Part shown: piece by piece, positions 15,639-25,902 of the stretch
Layout: each line of letters opens with the position of its first letter
Numbering within the stretch: position 1 is the stretch's first letter
Source of the DNA: a virus
Lineage: Duplodnaviria > Caudoviricetes
Strand: one strand, 5' to 3'
Length of the DNA: 25,902 nucleotides
Virus record (IMG/VR): IMGVR_UViG_3300048631_000255
Location: 1-25,902 of that record
Translations under genes and position numbers: made by a program
Notes under the pieces: generated by a model
Told to the model about the DNA's origin: nothing
The model's input: the letters and a program-made list of their open reading frames with translations, nothing else
Databases searched by the model: none

Positions 15639-16619
15639 ATGGCAATAACAGGCTCAGGAGTAATAAGCATACAAAGTATTGTTGATGAATTTGGCGGTAC
15701 AGCACCCCACGGCTTAAGTGAATACTATAGCGCTGCAGCAGGTATTCCTGCCTCAGGAGTAATTACAGTATCTGATTTTTATGGCGCATCAGCCGCTCTT
15801 AGTTTGACTGTTACAAGTAGTCAACTTAACTTTGATCTATATGATGCTTTAGTTGCAGCAGGGCATAGTTCGAGTGCTATAGCAGGTGTTGCCATTTTTA
15901 ATCTAACTATCAACGGTGGTGTCACTATGAAAGGCTCTAATACTCAAGGTAGTAATACTAGATTAGGAGATTACTCTTACAATACAAGTTATACTACGTC
16001 AGACCACGGTGATACTGCTGCAGGTGCATTTGGAAACCCAAAAGTACCAATGGGTTCGAGTAGTTCACAAAGAGCAGGAACGTCTGTTGGTGGTGTTGTG
16101 ATAGAAGGATTACCTAATGGTTGTACAATTAATATTACAAATGCAGGAACGATTGAGCCAGGCGCAGGTGGTGGCGGTCACGGACCATGGAATAATCATG
16201 GGCCTTGGCATGGACATTATCAGCATTGCGGTGGCGGAACAGGTGGTGCAGGAATAACAATTATTGATGTTGATAGTGCAACTGTCAATCTAACCAACTC
16301 AGGCACGGTACGAAGTGGCGGTGGCGGTGGTGGCGGTGGCGGCTGGGGCGCAGGTCATAGTAGTTGTTGTCCAAAATGGGGCGGTGATGGTCAAGGTCAT
16401 AACCGCTCGAACCAAGGTGGTGAAGGCGCGTCACATGGTGGAAACTCAGGCGGCTCGGGTGGATCTTGGGGAAATAGTGGATCAACCGTTACATCTCAAG
16501 GCGGCTTAGGTGGAACAATATTTGAATTAAGGTCTTGCTCTAGTACTTCTGTGAACCTTACAAATACAGGAACAACCACAGGCACTACCTCTAGAACCAC
16601 AAGCAGTTGGAGAGCTTAG
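15639..16619 (+). CDS. Glycine-rich adhesin / fibre tip (T-even gp38-like polyglycine architecture)
   Basis: N-terminal SG.IS..I..EFGG..P..LSEYY module; repeated xTNxGT followed by Gly runs (ITNAGTIEPGAGGGG, LTNSGTVRSGGGGGGGGG) separated by H/W/C-rich loops. Confidence 0.7.
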   Translation: MAITGSGVISIQSIVDEFGGTAPHGLSEYYSAAAGIPASGVITVSDFYGASAALSLTVTSSQLNFDLYDALVAAGHSSSAIAGVAIFNLTINGGVTMKGSNTQGSNTRLGDYSYNTSYTTSDHGDTAAGAFGNPKVPMGSSSSQRAGTSVGGVVIEGLPNGCTINITNAGTIEPGAGGGGHGPWNNHGPWHGHYQHCGGGTGGAGITIIDVDSATVNLTNSGTVRSGGGGGGGGGWGAGHSSCCPKWGGDGQGHNRSNQGGEGASHGGNSGGSGGSWGNSGSTVTSQGGLGGTIFELRSCSSTSVNLTNTGTTTGTTSRTTSSWRA

Positions 16620-18097
16620 AGGTAAAATCTATTGTAATAGTTGGGGGCGGTAGTTCAGGATGGATGTCCGCTGCTCATTTAATAAATGAGTTTCCCGATA
16701 AAAAGATTACCGTAATTGAGTCTCCTAATTTCCCCACCATAGGCGTTGGAGAAAGCACTATCCAATACATCCGACCGTGGATGTACAATCTAGGTATTAA
16801 AGATGAAGATTGGATGGACGCTTGTAATGCAACATATAAAGTATCTATCAGGTTTGAAAATTGGGATGGAAAGGATGGTCATTTCCATTATCCATTTGGT
16901 CAACCTATCTATAATAATGATATAGACTTCGATTATTATAATTTTGCTCGATTAAAAGACGATATTCCTAGCAGTGAGTGGGCAGAAATATTTTTCCCTG
17001 CGGCTCTTATGGCAGAAAACGATTGCTTAGTTGATAAAATGGAAGGTTGGGATTTAAGTAAAAATTCAGCGTACCATTTTGATGCTATAAAGTTTGCTCA
17101 ATGGTTAAAAAATGAATATTGCATACCTAGAGGTGTTGAATTAATTGCTGACACAGTAAGTAGCATAGATGTGGAAGGTGAAGGAATAATTAAAATTCAT
17201 TGCGAAGAGCCTGAACATAGAAATGAAAACGCTATTGTTGGTGATTTATACATAGATTGCACAGGTTTTAAAGGAATGTTAATAGATGCTGTTGGCTGTA
17301 AGTTTAGAGATTATGGTTATGGACTTATTAATGATAGTGCCTGGGCAACACAACTACCAAAGACACAACCTAATAGGTTTTATACAAATTGTACTACTCT
17401 CAAAAATGGGTGGGTATGGAACACCCCTACTAAGGAACGCACAGGAACGGGATATGTTTTTTCTAGCAAATATACAAGTGCAGAAGAAGCTCGAAAGGAG
17501 TTTGAGAAACACCTAGGAGTCGATGAGAACGAATTAACTATGAGACTATTAACTTGGAAACATGGTCGTAGAGAGAAATTTTCATACAAAAATGTAGTTG
17601 CTATAGGTCTATCTGCAGGGTTTATCGAGCCATTGGAGTCTGGTGGATTATTTACTACACATGAGACACTGAAGGAGTTATCCAAATCTTTACAAAGAGG
17701 CGTATTTGGTGGTGCAGAAAAAGAGGGTTTTAATTTTGCAATGACCAATAGGTTTGATGACTTTGCAGATTTTGTAGTAATGCACTATCAGTTTGCAACG
17801 AGGTGCGATACTAAATATTGGATGGACGCTTCAAAAAGAAAACTAAATAATAACAATGCCTTAAATGAGTTCTATACCTCATCATACAAAGACTCAAGGA
17901 CTATACCTAGTAATGCACATTATAATTCAATAGCATTCGGTTTAGGGTTTAACCCTGTGTCTCAATATGATGTAAGCTATGAAAAACTCTTTGCAAACGT
18001 AGACATGGTTGCAGATGGTGTGAAGTTTAGAAAATGGTTAAAAAATCGTCAAAGTAAGTGGTTAGATTATATTAAAGAAAATGCTATTAATAGATGA
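16607..18097 (+). CDS. Flavin-dependent halogenase, tryptophan halogenase (PrnA-like) family
   Basis: IVGGGSSGW FAD motif, IGVGEST, ATYK (catalytic Lys position), AYHFDA, IDCTGF, GWVWNTP (WxWxIP variant), FIEPLES. TTG start overlaps the adhesin stop. Confidence 0.92.
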   Translation: MESLEVKSIVIVGGGSSGWMSAAHLINEFPDKKITVIESPNFPTIGVGESTIQYIRPWMYNLGIKDEDWMDACNATYKVSIRFENWDGKDGHFHYPFGQPIYNNDIDFDYYNFARLKDDIPSSEWAEIFFPAALMAENDCLVDKMEGWDLSKNSAYHFDAIKFAQWLKNEYCIPRGVELIADTVSSIDVEGEGIIKIHCEEPEHRNENAIVGDLYIDCTGFKGMLIDAVGCKFRDYGYGLINDSAWATQLPKTQPNRFYTNCTTLKNGWVWNTPTKERTGTGYVFSSKYTSAEEARKEFEKHLGVDENELTMRLLTWKHGRREKFSYKNVVAIGLSAGFIEPLESGGLFTTHETLKELSKSLQRGVFGGAEKEGFNFAMTNRFDDFADFVVMHYQFATRCDTKYWMDASKRKLNNNNALNEFYTSSYKDSRTIPSNAHYNSIAFGLGFNPVSQYDVSYEKLFANVDMVADGVKFRKWLKNRQSKWLDYIKENAINR

Positions 18098-18665
18098 CAA
18101 TATTTTAACTAAAGAGGAAGTCAAGATCGTTGATGACGCGATTATCAATAATGATTTTTTCCCGTGGCACTATATGCCTTATTCTAGTTCGGCAAGTTAC
18201 CCCTTCTATGGGCATATCCTAGTAACCCGACACAGTGAGGAAGAACCTCCTGTCGCTAGTTCGGACTGGTTCTTCTTTTTTAAAAAGATCATGAATAGGT
18301 TTATGATTAGGAATGATTTACTTATGGATGGGTACAGTGTTTTAAGGGCTTGTCTAAATGATTCCTTATCTTTCAAGGAAAAAAGTTGTGATATACATGT
18401 TGATTATCCGGAAAAACACATAGTTTTTATATTATACTTAACAGAAAGCACGGGCAATACGAATATCTATGCTGAAAAATGGGAAGAATCTAAGCCTACA
18501 ACTTACTTGAATAAAGACGGGAGTAAAGATTTAAAATTACTAAAAAGTGTAAAGCCAAAGAAGGGTAGGTTATTATGTGTGGATGGTTTACATTATCATA
18601 GTATAGATTTTAAAAAAGAACTTGATAGAAGAATAATTTGCATTTTTGCTTTAAAGGAGAAATAG
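18081..18665 (+). CDS. 2OG-Fe(II) oxygenase
   Basis: HVD (HxD), ILYL..STGNT, PKKGR..DG..YHS, RRII. Confidence 0.85.
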   Translation: MLLIDDNILTKEEVKIVDDAIINNDFFPWHYMPYSSSASYPFYGHILVTRHSEEEPPVASSDWFFFFKKIMNRFMIRNDLLMDGYSVLRACLNDSLSFKEKSCDIHVDYPEKHIVFILYLTESTGNTNIYAEKWEESKPTTYLNKDGSKDLKLLKSVKPKKGRLLCVDGLHYHSIDFKKELDRRIICIFALKEK

Positions 18666-18667
18666 AT

Positions 18668-19186
18668 ATGGCATGGTTTTATAACGGAAAACAAATATAC
18701 GGAACATGGATAGATTCGGAGGGAGCTAATCACCCTTCTACGTGGGATGAAGATTGGTCAGAAGAAGAGAAAAAAGCTAAAGGATTAATTGACAAAGGTG
18801 AAATTAACGCAAGGTTTTTTAATGATGATGGGACGAAGAAAACTTCGGATGAAATAAAAGCCAACGAGTTAGCTAGAATGGATGGACTAAGCACATTTAT
18901 ATTAGGTGCAACATGTAGTGACGTAATTAGTGAAGTAGATGGATCTCCTTTAGAAGAAGACATTCCCGAAAGCATATCCTCATCTAGAGCAGAGACGGAA
19001 GCCTCTCGTTTACAAGCACAATCTCTAATCTTAGAGAAAGATAACTTTGATGGTTTGTATGATTTAATTATGAATAGTAATAAGATGGTGCACGGGATTC
19101 ATGTTCCTTCTGGCTCAGGAAGTTGGGGAACAGAAGCTATATCAGAAGATGCATTACACAGAAGACCTCCCCTAGGGACAGAGTGA
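18668..19186 (+). CDS. Tail fibre assembly/chaperone-like protein (divergent)
   Basis: Start reassigned to ATG 18668 after AAGGAG; W..EG.NHP.TW...WS.EEK.AKGL N-terminus and IP..I...RA resemble fibre-associated small proteins. Confidence 0.5.
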   Translation: MAWFYNGKQIYGTWIDSEGANHPSTWDEDWSEEEKKAKGLIDKGEINARFFNDDGTKKTSDEIKANELARMDGLSTFILGATCSDVISEVDGSPLEEDIPESISSSRAETEASRLQAQSLILEKDNFDGLYDLIMNSNKMVHGIHVPSGSGSWGTEAISEDALHRRPPLGTE

Positions 19187-19698
19187 ACTCTATTAGTCAC
19201 ATAGGTGATATAGAACGGTGGAGTTTAAAAACACCTACGTTCTATTTGAAAAATATAAATAATAAAAAATTATCAGATGAGCTATTAACTAACGCTAAAC
19301 GAAAAACGGAAGATACTACCTCAACTTTTTTTGAAGATTTTGAGGCTAACATTAAAGACTGCCCAACAGCATTAGACTTACTAGATTCAGTTCAAGATAT
19401 AGCAACTGAATATTATGGAAATGTAGAGATGGTTGAGTGGTGGGCGCAGATACACCAACAAGGCGAAAGCACAAACCAACATCACCATCATCCTGCAACT
19501 ACATCTTGGTGTTATTGGGTAAATATCCCAGTAGGCGCAGGTAAGTTTGTTTTTGTACTGAATGATTATGCAAGTGTTATGTCTGAGGTTGATCCTGTAG
19601 AGGGAATGTTAATGTTTTTTCCAGGATGGGTTTCGCATAAAGTTACTAGAAATTTATCGAAAGATTACCGGATCTGCATTTCAGGAAACATAAGATGA
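19183..19698 (+). CDS. 2OG-Fe(II) oxygenase (TIGR02466-like)
   Basis: Probable GTG start at 19183 (GTGA overlap); WAQIH..G....HHH, PVEG.L.FFPGW..H.V..N....RICISGN. Confidence 0.85.
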   Translation: MNSISHIGDIERWSLKTPTFYLKNINNKKLSDELLTNAKRKTEDTTSTFFEDFEANIKDCPTALDLLDSVQDIATEYYGNVEMVEWWAQIHQQGESTNQHHHHPATTSWCYWVNIPVGAGKFVFVLNDYASVMSEVDPVEGMLMFFPGWVSHKVTRNLSKDYRICISGNIR

Positions 19699-21779: not shown

Positions 21780-23105
21780 TTATTGTTTTAAATATTCTAA
21801 TAGCTCATTCTGGTTTTTTGCTTTTGAAGCAAGAGCCTTCATGACCTTTTCGTCCATACCGCCTTTAGCGACGATGTGCATAATCTTAACTGGTTTCTCT
21901 TGACCTTGTCGATGTAATCTAGCATTAAATTGTTGATACAATTCCAATGACCAATTTAAACCGAACCAGATGATAGATGAACCGCCTTGCTGCAGGTTAA
22001 GCCCATGACCTGCACTAGCAGGATGAGCAAATAGCAGTTTTATCTTTCCTTCGTTCCATAACTGTACCTCTACGCCCGATTTAGATAGACTAACACCTTG
22101 CGGAAAAGCTTTAGAGAGGCGTACGCGATCAGATTTATAGTTATATGCGATCAAAAACGTCTCATTTGGGTTATCTTCGATAATATCTTTGATTGCTTTA
22201 ATCTTTAAATCATGTATGATGTGCGTTGCCCCTTCTGCATCATAGACTGCACCATTACATATCTGCAGTAACTTGTTTGCTAACGTCGCCGCACTTAATG
22301 CCTCAATGTCGCCTTTCTCCAAAGTGATCAAGAATTCTTTCTCAAGTTCTTTGTACTGTTCCTTAACCTTTTCAGGAAAATCAATATATTCAGTAAGGTC
22401 AATTCTTTCGGGTAGTTCTAGATAGTCCTTGGATGACATAGTAATACATACGTCCTTGATTAACTTCTGGATTTCTTTATCTGCTCCTTTGTTTGGTTCC
22501 CAGTTGTAACCCATGTAGCCTGATGGGTGTAGAAATCTAGATCTAAAGTTACTAATCGTGCGGCCAAGTCTTCGACCGTTATCAATCAGATACATCTGAG
22601 ACCAAAGATCAGTGATGCTATTTGGACTAGGCGTTCCAGTTAATAGAACAACGCTCTTGAAATATTTGGTTACTTTTTTCAATGCTTTGAACCTTTGACT
22701 CTTCTGAGATTTGAACGAGGATGACTCATCAACAATAACCATGTCCCATTTCCATTTTCGTGTACGTACAAGCCAAGGAATGTTCTCCCTATTGATAACA
22801 TGTATGTCTGAATCAGAATCAAGTGCTTCGATTCGTTTCTTCTCTGAACCAGTAGCAATTGAAATAGTTAAGTGTTTGAGATGTGACCATTTGGTTGCTT
22901 CTTGTTTCCAAACTGTATTCGAAACTCTGAGTGGTGCAATAACCAGAACATTCTCAATTGCGAAATCTTCTAACATATCTGATGCGGCAGTTAAAGTCGT
23001 AACGGATTTACCTAATCCCATATCCAGAAACAAAGCGCACTTACGATTGTCTTTAATGAACGCAAGTGCTTTGTTTTGGTAATCGTGTAGGTCAGACCTA
23101 TCCAT
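21780..23105 (-). CDS. SNF2-family (SF2) helicase/ATPase
   Basis: LHDYQ, LDMGLGKS (Walker A), IVDESS, LTGTP, GHGLNLQ, QFNARLHRQGQ; likely start ATG 23105. Confidence 0.95.
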   Translation of the reverse strand: MDRSDLHDYQNKALAFIKDNRKCALFLDMGLGKSVTTLTAASDMLEDFAIENVLVIAPLRVSNTVWKQEATKWSHLKHLTISIATGSEKKRIEALDSDSDIHVINRENIPWLVRTRKWKWDMVIVDESSSFKSQKSQRFKALKKVTKYFKSVVLLTGTPSPNSITDLWSQMYLIDNGRRLGRTISNFRSRFLHPSGYMGYNWEPNKGADKEIQKLIKDVCITMSSKDYLELPERIDLTEYIDFPEKVKEQYKELEKEFLITLEKGDIEALSAATLANKLLQICNGAVYDAEGATHIIHDLKIKAIKDIIEDNPNETFLIAYNYKSDRVRLSKAFPQGVSLSKSGVEVQLWNEGKIKLLFAHPASAGHGLNLQQGGSSIIWFGLNWSLELYQQFNARLHRQGQEKPVKIMHIVAKGGMDEKVMKALASKAKNQNELLEYLKQ

Positions 23106-23553
23106 TTGCGGTAAGCATCTCATAAACGGCTTTGACTCTAGAGCGCCTTTTAACTTGTTTATCTTTAATCGAAACTATTGTTTGGGTTATGCCGCAAACA
23201 TAACGTCTTCCGGATATGACTTGATAATGATTTCCTGCGACGATTAGAAAGACTCTTCCTTTGCTTCTTTCTTTGACTGTGTTCTTTAACCATCTAGCTA
23301 AGGTTGGGCGTTTGTTGGTATCTTCGCCTCCTCCCCAATATTGCATTTGATAGTCTATGTTGTAATTGTGGAAGAGCACATCTAACAGATCGCCTTCTGC
23401 AACGCCTGTGATCATTCTTCTTCCCGTATATTCCCTAAGGGCTTTTGCAGTATCTGCAGTATCGACGTTGGTTAATGCTGAGATGGCCGAAGGTCCACAG
23501 AATCGATTTGATCTGCGTCCTTGTTCTTTTTTAACATTATAGATCTTCATCAT
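23098..23553 (-). CDS. Hypothetical protein with papain/C39-like Cys-His signature
   Basis: FCGPSAISAL and FLIVAGNHYQVISG; own promoter and SD AAGGA. Confidence 0.5.
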   Translation of the reverse strand: MMKIYNVKKEQGRRSNRFCGPSAISALTNVDTADTAKALREYTGRRMITGVAEGDLLDVLFHNYNIDYQMQYWGGGEDTNKRPTLARWLKNTVKERSKGRVFLIVAGNHYQVISGRRYVCGITQTIVSIKDKQVKRRSRVKAVYEMLTANG

Positions 23554-23567
23554 TTTATCCTTTTATT

Positions 23568-23591
23568 AACATCTTCAAAATTGTTGATGTT
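23568..23591. repeat. Inverted repeat in the 5' leader (operator or RNA hairpin)
   Basis: On the - strand: AACATC-AA-CAA-TT-TTG-AA-GATGTT, between the -10 and the SD. Confidence 0.55.
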
Positions 23592-23597
23592 GAGCCC

Positions 23598-23626
23598 ATT
23601 ATACCGTACTCTTGACTATTTGTAAA
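23598..23626 (-). promoter_or_regulatory. Near-consensus sigma70 promoter
   Basis: TTTACA (23626-23621), 17-nt spacer, TATAAT (23603-23598). Confidence 0.85.
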
Positions 23627-23628
23627 TC

Positions 23629-23895
23629 TTATTTGACAAATATATTCTTACCTTTTTCAATATCATCAATAATATACACCTCAAGATCTTGCTCTCTGAT
23701 GCGGCTAATAATTTTCTCTTGTAACTTCGTAGGCTTCTTTTTAGGAGCTTTAAATTCTATGAATATGCATTTACCTGACTTGAGGTATATTCGGTCCGGT
23801 ACGCCGCGATTTGACGGTGAGACAAACTTATAACTTAACCATCCTTGTGTCTTTGCGTAGTCACTTACTTTCTTCTCGATCGTTGACTCTCTCAT
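23629..23895 (-). CDS. VRR-NUC domain nuclease
   Basis: MRESTIE, KFVSP..RGVPDRI, FIEFKAP, LQ; 88 aa. Confidence 0.93.
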   Translation of the reverse strand: MRESTIEKKVSDYAKTQGWLSYKFVSPSNRGVPDRIYLKSGKCIFIEFKAPKKKPTKLQEKIISRIREQDLEVYIIDDIEKGKNIFVK

Positions 23896-24316
23896 ACTTT
23901 ATTTGTATCCCCAATTTCGTTAACATATCTATGCCTGACTGATCAGCATAGCCTTCCGAATATATTACCGTCTTGCAACTAGTGTTTGCAATTAATTTTG
24001 CACAGGTAATACAAGGTGCTGTAGTTAAATAAATTGTATCAATATCCATCGTATTATCACATTGCAATAATGCGTTTTGTTCCGCATGTGTTGCCATACA
24101 AAAATTTAGATTCATTCCTGACTCTTCGTCCTGTCCGCCGCAAGGGGTATGAATACAGTGAGGAAATCCTTTCGGTACTCCATTATATCCAGTAGCCTTT
24201 ATGTGACCATAAGGGTTTATGATGACACAACCAACGGATCTACGGGGACAAGTTGATCGTGTAGATACTAATCGTGCAATCTTTAAAAAGTATTGGTTTC
24301 TGCTTTCTCTTCTCAT
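23861..24316 (-). CDS. dCMP deaminase family protein
   Basis: Start reassigned to ATG 24316 (ATGA overlap); RSTC.RR.VGC, TGYNG.P, HAEQNAL, PCITC zinc motif. Confidence 0.93.
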   Translation of the reverse strand: MRRESRNQYFLKIARLVSTRSTCPRRSVGCVIINPYGHIKATGYNGVPKGFPHCIHTPCGGQDEESGMNLNFCMATHAEQNALLQCDNTMDIDTIYLTTAPCITCAKLIANTSCKTVIYSEGYADQSGIDMLTKLGIQIKYERVNDREESK

Positions 24317-24462
24317 TTTATAAAATACACACAGACTAAAACAATTGCTAAAGTCACAAGTGGTAATCTTACAAAACACGTATGGCAATTGTCCCACTTA
24401 TCAAACATGTCTTTTTCAAATTCTTTTAACGAACGGCTAAGCTCTTTAATTCTTACTAACAT
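24313..24462 (-). CDS. 49-aa membrane protein
   Basis: SD GAGGAGAG; MLVRIKELSRSLKEFEKDMFDKWDNCHTCFVRLPLVTLAIVLVCVYFIK; stop overlaps the deaminase start. Confidence 0.65.
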   Translation of the reverse strand: MLVRIKELSRSLKEFEKDMFDKWDNCHTCFVRLPLVTLAIVLVCVYFIK

Positions 24463-24473
24463 TTTCTCTCCTC

Positions 24474-25817
24474 TTATTTAAATTCTTTATTAAAAATTTT
24501 GATATTTTCTAAAGTGTTATCCCTAACGCTTTTACTTCTAACCTCTTCTGACTTTAAAGCTAATTTGTCTCTATTGATAATCTCATCAGGTAAGACGTCC
24601 TTAAACAGTTCTTTTAGCACCTTTTTTCCTTTCCTAAGTTTAAAGCTTAGACCCAATGCATGCTTAACGATATAGGAAGCCATGAAAGGTGCTCGTAGTT
24701 CTACGACTGAACCCATCATGATGCGGTCTAATCTTGGATTGTGATAATAAGGTAATTCCTGAAACACATCTGAGTGTTGACTATCATAGTGATTGTTTCG
24801 TTTATAACCAGAGAAGAGCTCGTCTGCGCCATCTCCAGAAAGTACTACGTGAATTCCTTTATCTTTCAATGCGTTAGCTAATTGTGCCTGGGGTATAACA
24901 CTGCCTAAATCTACAGGCGTTTGATTGCGGCGGATAGCTTCTTCTTTAGTAACGGAATAATCTTTAAGATCAATCTTTTCATAATCATCTGTCAAAAGCT
25001 TAACATATTCCTCTTCCCCGTTTTCAACATGAAAAGCTTTAATGTCTGGATCATGTCGAGTAGCAATTTCATAGATGATAGAACTATCCAATCCGCCTGA
25101 TAGTAGTATCGCTGGCTTTCTCTTACCTCCCATTCTTAACTTTACTGAACGGAATAAACCTTCTTCAAGATCTACGTCTTCCACTTCTTCCCAATCCCAA
25201 TAAGGCTTAATCTTTCCATCAACATAATAAGATCCGATTGGCATTTGTTTAATCTCTAGCCAAGGCGTCATTCCACCAATGTCATAACCAAACTTAGGTA
25301 TAGCCGAAAAGAAAAGTTCATCCTTATTTGTTTTCCCTAATAAGCTTAAAGGATAAGGTTCAGAACAAAGAGCCTGCATATCTGTACGATAATACAAAGG
25401 CTTTTGAGATAAGTAATCAACGATGCCAATTAAACGTCCGTTATCAATTGCTGCAAAGTTCCAGAATCCATCGATCTCATGCAAACGTGATGTGGTTTGT
25501 TGTCCCATAACAAAGTCTGTAAATAGTTGGGAATCATTTTCAGATTCTAAATTGTATTTTTCCTTCAATTCTTTCCAATTAAATATCTCCCCTGAGAAAG
25601 CACCAGTAAAGTTTTCACCCCATCGCTTATTCCTTAAGGGTTGTTCGTACTTGGACTTTTCTAATGAAGTCATAGGTAAAATGTTATGAAGAACAAAAGC
25701 TCCATTCTCATTGTATACCGACGTCTCAAGACCACGATGAGACAAAGACTCTGTTAATTGTCTCACTTGATCCTTCCATAAAGGTTTTTCTGTTTTATAA
25801 ACTAAAAATCCGCACAT
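24474..25817 (-). CDS. Asparagine synthetase B-like amidotransferase
   Basis: N-terminal MCGF (Ntn Cys), HRG, GEIFN, QKPLYY, LLSGGLDSS PP-loop, LSGDGADELF.GY, LDR..M...VE.RAPF. Confidence 0.93.
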   Translation of the reverse strand: MCGFLVYKTEKPLWKDQVRQLTESLSHRGLETSVYNENGAFVLHNILPMTSLEKSKYEQPLRNKRWGENFTGAFSGEIFNWKELKEKYNLESENDSQLFTDFVMGQQTTSRLHEIDGFWNFAAIDNGRLIGIVDYLSQKPLYYRTDMQALCSEPYPLSLLGKTNKDELFFSAIPKFGYDIGGMTPWLEIKQMPIGSYYVDGKIKPYWDWEEVEDVDLEEGLFRSVKLRMGGKRKPAILLSGGLDSSIIYEIATRHDPDIKAFHVENGEEEYVKLLTDDYEKIDLKDYSVTKEEAIRRNQTPVDLGSVIPQAQLANALKDKGIHVVLSGDGADELFSGYKRNNHYDSQHSDVFQELPYYHNPRLDRIMMGSVVELRAPFMASYIVKHALGLSFKLRKGKKVLKELFKDVLPDEIINRDKLALKSEEVRSKSVRDNTLENIKIFNKEFK

Positions 25818-25818
25818 C

Positions 25819-25902
25819 TTACTCTCCTATAAGTTTAGCTAATGCATATTTGTCATTTTGAAAGCAATGAAAAGAAGTAGAGGTAAACATGATTGCTCCT
25901 GG
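25819..25902 (-). CDS. C-terminal 27 aa of a thymidylate synthase / pyrimidine hydroxymethylase-like protein (truncated by window edge)
   Basis: PGAIMFTSTSFHCFQNDKYALAKLIGE*; matches the terminal PG..h....S[LF]Hx[YF]..D motif of the TS fold. Only 27 residues are visible. Confidence 0.55.
   Translation of the reverse strand, partial: PGAIMFTSTSFHCFQNDKYALAKLIGE

Follow-up and report, generated by a model that had tools for sequence, protein, structure and literature searches.

A thymidylate synthase-fold enzyme and an AsnB-like amidotransferase as a candidate cytosine-modification cassette in phages

The cassette and its distribution

The IMG/VR virus record IMGVR_UViG_3300048631_000255 (Duplodnaviria; Caudoviricetes) carries a short run of genes encoding a thymidylate synthase (TS)-fold enzyme, a compact AsnB-like amidotransferase and a deaminase (Table 1), which we examine here as a candidate DNA base-modification cassette. 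The window, by which we mean the whole stretch analysed (positions 1 to 25,902 of the record, 25.9 kb), is a fragment of a podovirus genome, estimated to be 71% complete, whose plus strand encodes SU10-type portal and capsid genes and whose minus strand encodes the replication block. All or part of it recurs in 21 public sequencing runs, 20 from hydrothermal-vent metagenomes and one marine; no RNA runs are listed among them. We find that the TS-fold and AsnB-like genes travel together in small and T4-like phages, and the cassette very probably makes some modified DNA cytosine.

The window edge cuts the TS gene, leaving an open reading frame (ORF) at 25819-25902 that translates as PGAIMFTSTSFHCFQNDKYALAKLIGE*. 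The initial annotation, made from the letters alone, took this remnant to be TS-like, and a PF00303 match and the predicted fold bear this out for the complete gene, which lies at 435-1169 of contig L001 (99.86% identical to window positions 23102-25902 across 2801 nt); the ending it quoted is present, but the real stretch is 10 residues longer than written. A Logan contig from run X2 that spans 23562-25902 with four differences gives independent assembly support. As annotated, the 447-aa AsnB-like ORF begins 1 nt past the upstream stop: a single base separates the TAA of the TS-like gene from the ATG, and the GGAGAG ribosome site of the AsnB-like ORF sits inside the 3' end of the TS gene. The annotated picture of three tightly packed, co-oriented genes stands as to orientation, all being on the minus strand, and has to be amended as to packing, because a 49-aa ORF lies between the AsnB and deaminase genes and overlaps the deaminase start. 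This ORF has a homologue in six of eight related loci checked, and in L003 and L031 the AsnB and deaminase genes leave no gap for it. One near-identical contig holds a 2-oxoglutarate (2OG)-Fe(II) oxygenase gene in its place (L002:11014-11616); an oxygenase between AsnB and deaminase was rejected as a core step, being present in one contig only (L002/L024). The cassette had also been placed at the head of the replication block, whereas it lies inside it: near-identical contigs put primase, single-stranded DNA-binding protein (SSB) and DNA polymerase genes upstream, and the order in the lineage is SSB, family-B-like polymerase, MazG/PRA-PH, DUF6378, an optional N6/N4-methyltransferase-like gene, TS, AsnB, deaminase, VRR-NUC and helicase. 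Promoter and terminator scans gave chance-level hits only.

Table 1. Genes of the cassette and its downstream border, in window coordinates
Feature	Position	Strand	Evidence and remarks
TS-fold gene, 3' end (244 aa whole; Asp at N177 site, dCMP-type)	25819..25902	-	A3 profile E 3.8e-8; window edge cuts gene
AsnB-like amidotransferase, compact, 447 aa	24474..25817	-	PF00733 E 1.5e-33; GATase_7 E 5.9e-10
49-aa ORF, optional passenger	24313..24462	-	own ribosome site, hydrophobic C-terminus
Zn-dependent dCMP/dCTP-type deaminase, 151 aa, ATG start	23861..24316	-	PF00383 E 3.6e-20; HAE, PCxxC motifs
VRR-NUC nuclease	23629..23895	-	downstream border of cassette slot; outside proposed pathway

Linkage was counted in one collection, over the best 80 of 350 viral stretches that matched the TS clade and the best 80 of 253 that matched the AsnB-like protein. 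AsnB is carried at 72 of these TS-clade loci; five others end less than 700 bp past TS (in one, the AsnB start is visible at the contig end), and three, L051, L052 and L079, representing two lineages, have room yet are AsnB-free. Conversely, TS is carried at 71 of the AsnB loci, adjacently in 60, and the other nine have less than 800 bp upstream, so that no locus among the 80 has upstream room and lacks TS. The co-occurrence across phages that had been anticipated is therefore seen. The deaminase lies at most 2.5 kb downstream of AsnB in 79 of the 80 loci, the remaining one ending too early. Among the 80 best AsnB loci listed from a scan of genome contigs, four are clade members on contigs of metagenome-assembled genomes (MAGs) and 76 are ordinary cellular AsnB genes. 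None of the 76 has a TS match nearby; two of the four clade members have an adjacent TS and the other two are short, with a kinase-like neighbour. Across 51 non-redundant TS-AsnB pairs (115 before reduction at 90% identity) the two trees correlate, with a Mantel rho of 0.89 and none of 500 permutations as high.

Carriers include small phages of differing polymerases and virion modules as well as T4-like phages, and TS has Nmad1/DUF1599 (a 'nucleotide modification associated domain') among its neighbours at 27 of 86 loci and MazG/PRA-PH at 54. Four carriers, G001, G002, G013 and G015, are complete as judged by terminal repeats. In the T4-like G001 and G002, ThyX and a gp1-like dNMP kinase are both encoded outside the module, so these phages do not depend on its TS for dTMP. 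In G013 a kinase gene separates TS from AsnB, and G015, which has the module, encodes neither ThyX nor a recognisable dNMP kinase. C5-methyltransferases of the PF00145 family occur in two of 30 records and in one of the four complete carriers, G015, whose protein reads HDDCG without a PC/SPPC motif.

Other genes accompany the module more loosely. PF00145-like genes lie near it in a minority of loci (L153:11247-12404, L051:8076-9278, L187:4740-5990, L188:7373-8791). The N6/N4-methyltransferase-like gene (PF01555, PYP motif, 285-337 aa; L003:1219-2079, L011:3677-4609 and 28 more loci) is an optional neighbour of TS, at 30 of 86 loci in podoviruses and T4-like phages, and is absent in the window lineage (L001, L002, L008). 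A cytidylyltransferase-like gene stands immediately upstream of TS in about 26 loci (L039:7580-8137, L041:477-917 and related T4-like ones), mostly without Nmad1/DUF6378, and G001 (L157-L164, for example L159:8902-18035) holds big arrays of radical S-adenosylmethionine (SAM) and 2OG-Fe(II) oxygenase genes.

The slot occupied by the cassette appears in other states elsewhere. In Pseudoalteromonas phage AL it is empty, the polymerase being followed directly by VRR-NUC and helicase. The closely related G029 (84% identity in SSB, 77% in polymerase and 81% in helicase) has another set of genes behind MazG and DUF6378: a TS with 43% identity to T4 gp42, an unknown gene, a pyridoxal phosphate (PLP)-fold gene and an HMUDK_hel/AADT look-alike. 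The last assignment is a lead; the best feature matches are HMUDK_hel/AADT clusters, in which 31-92% of the members carry that family. Different base-modification kits thus occupy this one slot. The G029 set, an Asp-type T4 gp42-like hydroxymethylase with the PLP-fold gene and the HMUDK_hel/AADT look-alike, is found at L178:10480-14275 and also at L179:4856-6527; PLP-fold and HMUDK_hel/AADT-type enzymes have been described for thymidine hypermodification, and the set hints at amino-acid hypermodification of hydroxymethylcytosine. A 330-aa gene of L178 was considered as a T4 beta-glucosyltransferase and gave no significant match.

The TS clade also reaches cultured phages, namely Muddy, Zuko, Serbin, Strzyga and many Gordonia phages, at 35-45% identity. 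There it is accompanied by a kinase, dUTPase/MazG and a deaminase, with an unknown gene replacing AsnB. In Muddy, Zuko, Serbin and Strzyga an unknown gene with a Cys and R-x10-D spacing lies just upstream of TS (L019:6033-6926, L020:5823-6884, L021:5168-5977, L022:6114-6953); as a second TS fold it is unproven, with hhalign probabilities of 2.9% and 0.2%.

Two further regions of the window deserve mention. Between VRR-NUC and the helicase, positions 23098-23553 (minus strand) encode a 151-aa protein of no known family with an FCGPSA motif; the region is variable in the population, about 450 bp being skipped in contigs of all four runs compared, three of which show 194 other letters instead, and L002 too is without the gene. 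After the capsid module, positions 16607-19698 (plus strand) hold a tryptophan halogenase gene (PF04820, E 6e-103) and, behind it, 2OG-Fe(II) oxygenase-like genes.

The two enzymes

The predicted model of the TS-fold protein (pLDDT 95.7) has as its best Foldseek match the CMP hydroxymethylase MilA (TM 0.79). In an alignment of 100 sequences, the L001 protein plus 99 of 120 listed homologues, Cys166, Arg186, Asp189, Asp197 and His229 are invariant, as are His73, Glu76, Arg77, His107, Arg192 and His193. The initial annotation had called for a check of the Asn/Asp residue that separates dUMP from dCMP specificity, and the answer is uniform: Asp197 occupies the ThyA N177 position, aligned to Asp179 of T4 gp42, in all 100 sequences, and the hallmark Asn177 of canonical ThyA is not present in these homologues. 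Asp at this site is described as a marker of dCMP use in the portions of PMC8670742 and PMC13326640 covered here, so the enzyme should act on dCMP and not dUMP. It follows that the deaminase probably does not supply it with dUMP, as had been suggested.

The rest of the predicted pocket is unusual. Arg163, three residues before the catalytic Cys, stands at the position of T4 Asp145 and E. coli Leu143 and is Arg in 100 of 100, so that the Asp/Glu signature of hydroxymethylases before the catalytic Cys is absent. The diagnostic D169N that 5-hydroxy-dCMP synthases carry, according to the parts of PMC13326640 covered, is also lacking, Asp189 being kept in every sequence. On the folate side the protein reads RHFHND, at positions invariant or nearly so (n=100), where the E. 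faecalis TS has LGVPFN and that of Xp12 VGLPYD, so an Xp12-type hydrophobic segment is not found. The corresponding E. coli ThyA segment is LGLPFN. Alignments disagree on the register of the Glu58/Glu60 counterpart; Ala70, Phe66 or His73 could align, none of them Glu, and in this unstable register the invariant Glu76 or the Asp/Glu at 71 could stand in. Three published product signatures, those of methylases, hydroxymethylases and hydroxylases described so far, are missing by sequence, and the pocket appears polar, cationic and ill-suited to ordinary methylene-folate chemistry.

The AsnB-like protein, modelled at pLDDT 91.7 and closest in predicted fold to E. coli AsnB 1ct9 (TM 0.80), combines an Ntn glutaminase domain, with Cys2, and a PP-loop adenylation domain, with SGGLDS at 240-245, SGDGADE and Lys418. 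Cys2, Arg28, Asp95, the SGG-DS loop, GDG-DE and Lys418 do not vary among 38 non-redundant homologues, and on that basis the glutaminase and adenylation functions both look intact. The departures concern other positions. Human ASNS DITTVRAS aligns with DLGSVKP here, which overlaps a PxDLGS motif that is invariant in the clade; DITTVRAS (TTxRA, before the TPM helix) serves in aspartate activation. Arg340 and His359 are clade-specific invariants, and Asn74 of NGEI is substituted in 36 of the 38 sequences. In a FastTree phylogeny of 57 proteins (13 from the alignment, four from MAG contigs, 32 cellular, seven other viral, and TurkishDelight gp124) the 17 module proteins form a single clade with support 100. 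We judge a role in making a DNA base, as first proposed for this gene, far likelier than asparagine synthesis. A structure prediction of the TS dimer with AsnB scored 0.01 and is uninformative about binding.

A proposed route to an amide-bearing cytosine, and its rivals

What might such a pair make? We propose that the TS-fold enzyme would load C5 of dCMP with a group that contains a carboxylate, that the AsnB-like enzyme would use ATP to adenylate this carboxylate and glutamine-derived ammonia to turn it into an amide, and that the resulting amide-bearing C5 derivative would replace cytosine in phage DNA. The choice of dCMP is suggested by Asp197, and the other steps by analogy with the Cmo system of Synechococcus phage S-B43, discussed below: Arg163, which would face the C5 substituent, may bind the carboxylate as Arg350 of CmoX does (PMC12783734, in the portion covered), and the amidation would resemble that carried out by CmoY. 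The AsnB-like enzyme could act on either the nucleotide or finished DNA. Rather than feeding TS, the deaminase would drain dCMP, or surplus modified deoxycytidine nucleotides, to the uracil/thymine pool; the upstream MazG-like pyrophosphatase would clear unmodified dCTP, a phage or host kinase would make the triphosphate, and the phage polymerase would insert the modified nucleotide. That TS installs a carboxylated C5 group on dCMP and AsnB amidates the product is a reading we hold at even confidence. Both halves have known kin, and the pair itself, of which we found no description in the literature covered, could well involve new enzyme chemistry. As a tentative and doubtful elaboration, the TS fold would be repurposed so that its Cys-C6 adduct couples C5 of dCMP to a two-carbon electrophile with a carboxylate, either free or folate-bound glyoxylate, anchored by Arg163, after which AsnB would generate a 5-carbamoylmethyl-type cytosine genome-wide. 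The glyoxylate or glyoxylate-folate donor comes from general chemical background, and we found nothing relevant in the literature on glyoxylate-folate adducts.

Several other chemistries could use the same genes. The TS might make 5-hydroxymethyl-dCMP, with AsnB adenylating the hydroxyl and ammonia displacing it to give 5-aminomethyl-cytosine, perhaps methylated by the PF01555-like product; the best fold and profile matches of TS do belong to the CMP/dCMP hydroxymethylase class, that optional gene does recur near TS, and the activated hydroxyl of a 4-amino-5-hydroxymethylpyrimidine ionises readily, as known from thiamine chemistry. Yet AsnB-family reactions, to our knowledge, activate carboxylates and not alcohols, and the methyltransferase-like gene is missing from the window's own lineage. 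The invariant Arg163, moreover, occupies the site where T4 needs Asp145 for hydroxymethylation, D145N being already inactive in the part of PMC6400193 covered, and we consider the aminomethyl product unlikely. A simpler end point would be plain 5-methylcytosine (5mC), made by an Xp12-like dCMP methylase with a methyl-selective deaminase supplying dT and AsnB serving as an auxiliary asparagine synthetase or in another non-nucleotide role. An Asp-type TS with a deaminase and PRA-PH is the described 5mC layout, and 5mdCMP was made by five of seven synthases tested (10.1101/2024.12.05.627091, in the portion covered); the E. coli enzyme is, in addition, the best fold match of the AsnB-like protein. 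We nevertheless regard 5mC as quite unlikely, because the TS of Xp12 shares no more than about 21% identity with this one and retains the hydrophobic VGLPYD, and because AsnB, a clade of its own with PxDLGS in place of DITTVRAS, is never without TS where room exists among the best 80 loci.

Two further alternatives give the deaminase a larger part. It might generate a modified dUMP that host thymidylate kinase phosphorylates, AsnB then re-aminating uracil C4 as GMP synthetase does. Such a bypass would suit G015, a complete genome in which the module is present and no dNMP kinase is recognisable, as well as the window and L002, in which none was seen, and a kinase does stand beside TS in AsnB-free cultured relatives and in L049/L051/L052. 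However, kinase and AsnB occur together in G001, G002 and G013 and at five of the 80 AsnB loci (L098, L099, L100, L109, L133), and the lack of a kinase in the window counts for less in a genome only 71% complete; the bypass is very unlikely, and the broader idea of AsnB as a substitute for a nucleotide kinase is weakened by the same three genomes, which encode both. Finally, the deaminase might supply dUMP to a TS that modifies uracil, with AsnB tailoring the thymine analogue. Its near-constant place after AsnB (79 of 80 loci) would suit this uracil route, which the uniform Asp at the N177 site and the ThyX retained for normal dTMP by both complete T4-like carriers make highly improbable.

Composition offers an indirect view of modification, and weakly favours it in the carriers: the observed/expected ratio of hexamer palindromes with inner C/G is 0.73-1.01 in 10 carrier sets and 0.63-0.73 in four module-free relatives, with 0.98 for T4 and 0.59 for RB49 on the same measure. 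GATATC is strongly avoided in the window and the small carriers G015, G013 and G017 (observed/expected 2/12, 0/17, 3/11 and 0/5) and GATC is not; restriction enzymes insensitive to C5 modification could leave such a pattern.

A number of observations weigh against the carboxylate-amide proposal or the evidence for it. The carboxylate step would rest on one residue, Arg163, and one analogy, and no carbon-donor enzyme is found among the conserved neighbours. In the palindrome comparison the window is the lowest of the carriers (0.73, 162/223) and equal to the top control, the 4-mer version fails its T4/RB49 check (0.80 vs 0.87), the carriers, several of which are closely related, and the controls have different hosts, and the avoidance of GATATC in the window (2 observed, 12 expected) runs the other way. 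The deaminase also tracks TS (rho 0.83), so shared genome descent may explain part of the TS-AsnB congruence, and the TS splits that recur in the AsnB tree are 16 of 26 well-supported ones. MetaGPA shows no significant enrichment of Asn_synthase among modified contigs (6 vs 255; p 0.059, 1 after correction), and motifs of the clade were looked for in its supplementary enrichment table and not found. The TS-AsnB pair occurs in no cultured phage, and Muddy, Zuko, Serbin and Strzyga have the Arg163-type TS clade without AsnB, so the TS product must be usable unamidated or be processed by another enzyme. We found no report in the literature searched on the DNA chemistry of cultured phages with this TS clade; the DNA of these four may hold an unreported modified cytosine.

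If the glyoxylate elaboration is right, the module would provide a nucleotide-level, carboxy-SAM-independent route to the chemical handle that CmoX makes on DNA, and those Gordonia, Streptomyces, Serratia and Mycobacterium phages in culture that have the TS clade would carry an unrecognised modified cytosine. The nucleotide-level cytosine replacement products in the literature covered are methyl, hydroxymethyl and hydroxy; the module points to a further one, to the TS active site described here and to a new substrate for the AsnB family. An amide-bearing cytosine would shield viral DNA from host nucleases, and a new base would matter for restriction evasion by marine phages, for the annotation of 'asparagine synthase' auxiliary genes and for enzymatic DNA labelling.

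Comparison with known systems

We found no description of the TS-AsnB pair in a literature search whose scope left out most subscription journals and the supplements of PMC12783734 and of the mSCD report (10.1101/2024.12.05.627091). The hydroxymethyl-dC pathway of T4 (gp42, gp1, gp56, cd) resembles the module in its Asp-type TS fold of about 245 aa with a Cys nucleophile, in having a nucleotide pyrophosphatase, deaminase and kinase, and in its position near the polymerase. The TS described here is, however, 19% identical to gp42, with Arg for Asp145 and RHFHND for FGFRND, and its gene is followed by that of an amidotransferase instead of a glucosyltransferase. The 5-hydroxy-dCMP synthases RB69 gp48, DLP3 gp80 and HY126 AfhB share the C-terminal H-x-F-x-x-D pattern and, as flavin-dependent TS homologues, perform non-folate chemistry on dCMP (PMC13326640, in the part covered); they have Glu at the L143 site and D169N, in contrast to Arg163 and Asp189 here.

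The Xp12-type 5-methyl-dCMP synthase with its mSCD is alike in layout, an Asp-type TS beside a PF00383 deaminase and PRA-PH/MazG, and the mSCD trait is described as polyphyletic (10.1101/2024.12.05.627091, in the portion covered); the deaminase encoded in cis with an Asp-type TS is found in our cassette too. The sequences differ, with about 21% identity between the TS proteins, a different folate-side segment and 27% identity between the deaminases, and Xp12 has no match to AsnB and none annotated within its first 50 kb. Against E. coli AsnB 1ct9 and human ASNS, the AsnB-like protein shares the two-domain fold, the Cys nucleophile, the PP-loop and the catalytic Lys, but is about 100 aa shorter, 21-22% identical and without the TTxRA segment.

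Among cultured phages the only full-length match to the AsnB-like protein is TurkishDelight gp124 (which we take to be A0A7T0Q3R0), at 23% identity; it falls outside the module clade on a long branch of the FastTree phylogeny, a tree that did not contain S-B43 CmoY. TurkishDelight gp123-125 have the CmoX-like, AsnB-like and CmoA-like layout of the glutaminase-bearing Cmo cluster. The CmoX-like gp123 has no match in nine carrier sets, and the CmoA-like gp125 has no tblastn match in them at E 1e-3, where the same query finds the S-CRM01 homologue; a host CmoA is possible.

The closest precedent is CmoA/CmoX/CmoY itself. The initial annotation knew of no characterised pathway with this combination, which holds for the exact pair and not for its second half: CmoY, a homologue of asparagine synthetase from a phage, activates 5-carboxymethylcytosine in DNA by adenylation and joins glycine to it as an amide, so that AsnB-type amidation of a C5-carboxylated cytosine is already known, and ammonia use was predicted for the glutaminase-bearing CmoY cluster, which could not be expressed (PMC12783734, in the portion covered). 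The two systems would share an AMP-forming asparagine-synthetase-like ligase and an Arg in the enzyme that installs the carboxylate. In the Cmo system a C5-methyltransferase homologue uses carboxy-SAM to modify finished DNA at GC sites (same portion of that report), whereas here the constant partner of AsnB is a TS-fold enzyme, standing where the Cmo system has CmoX/CmoA.

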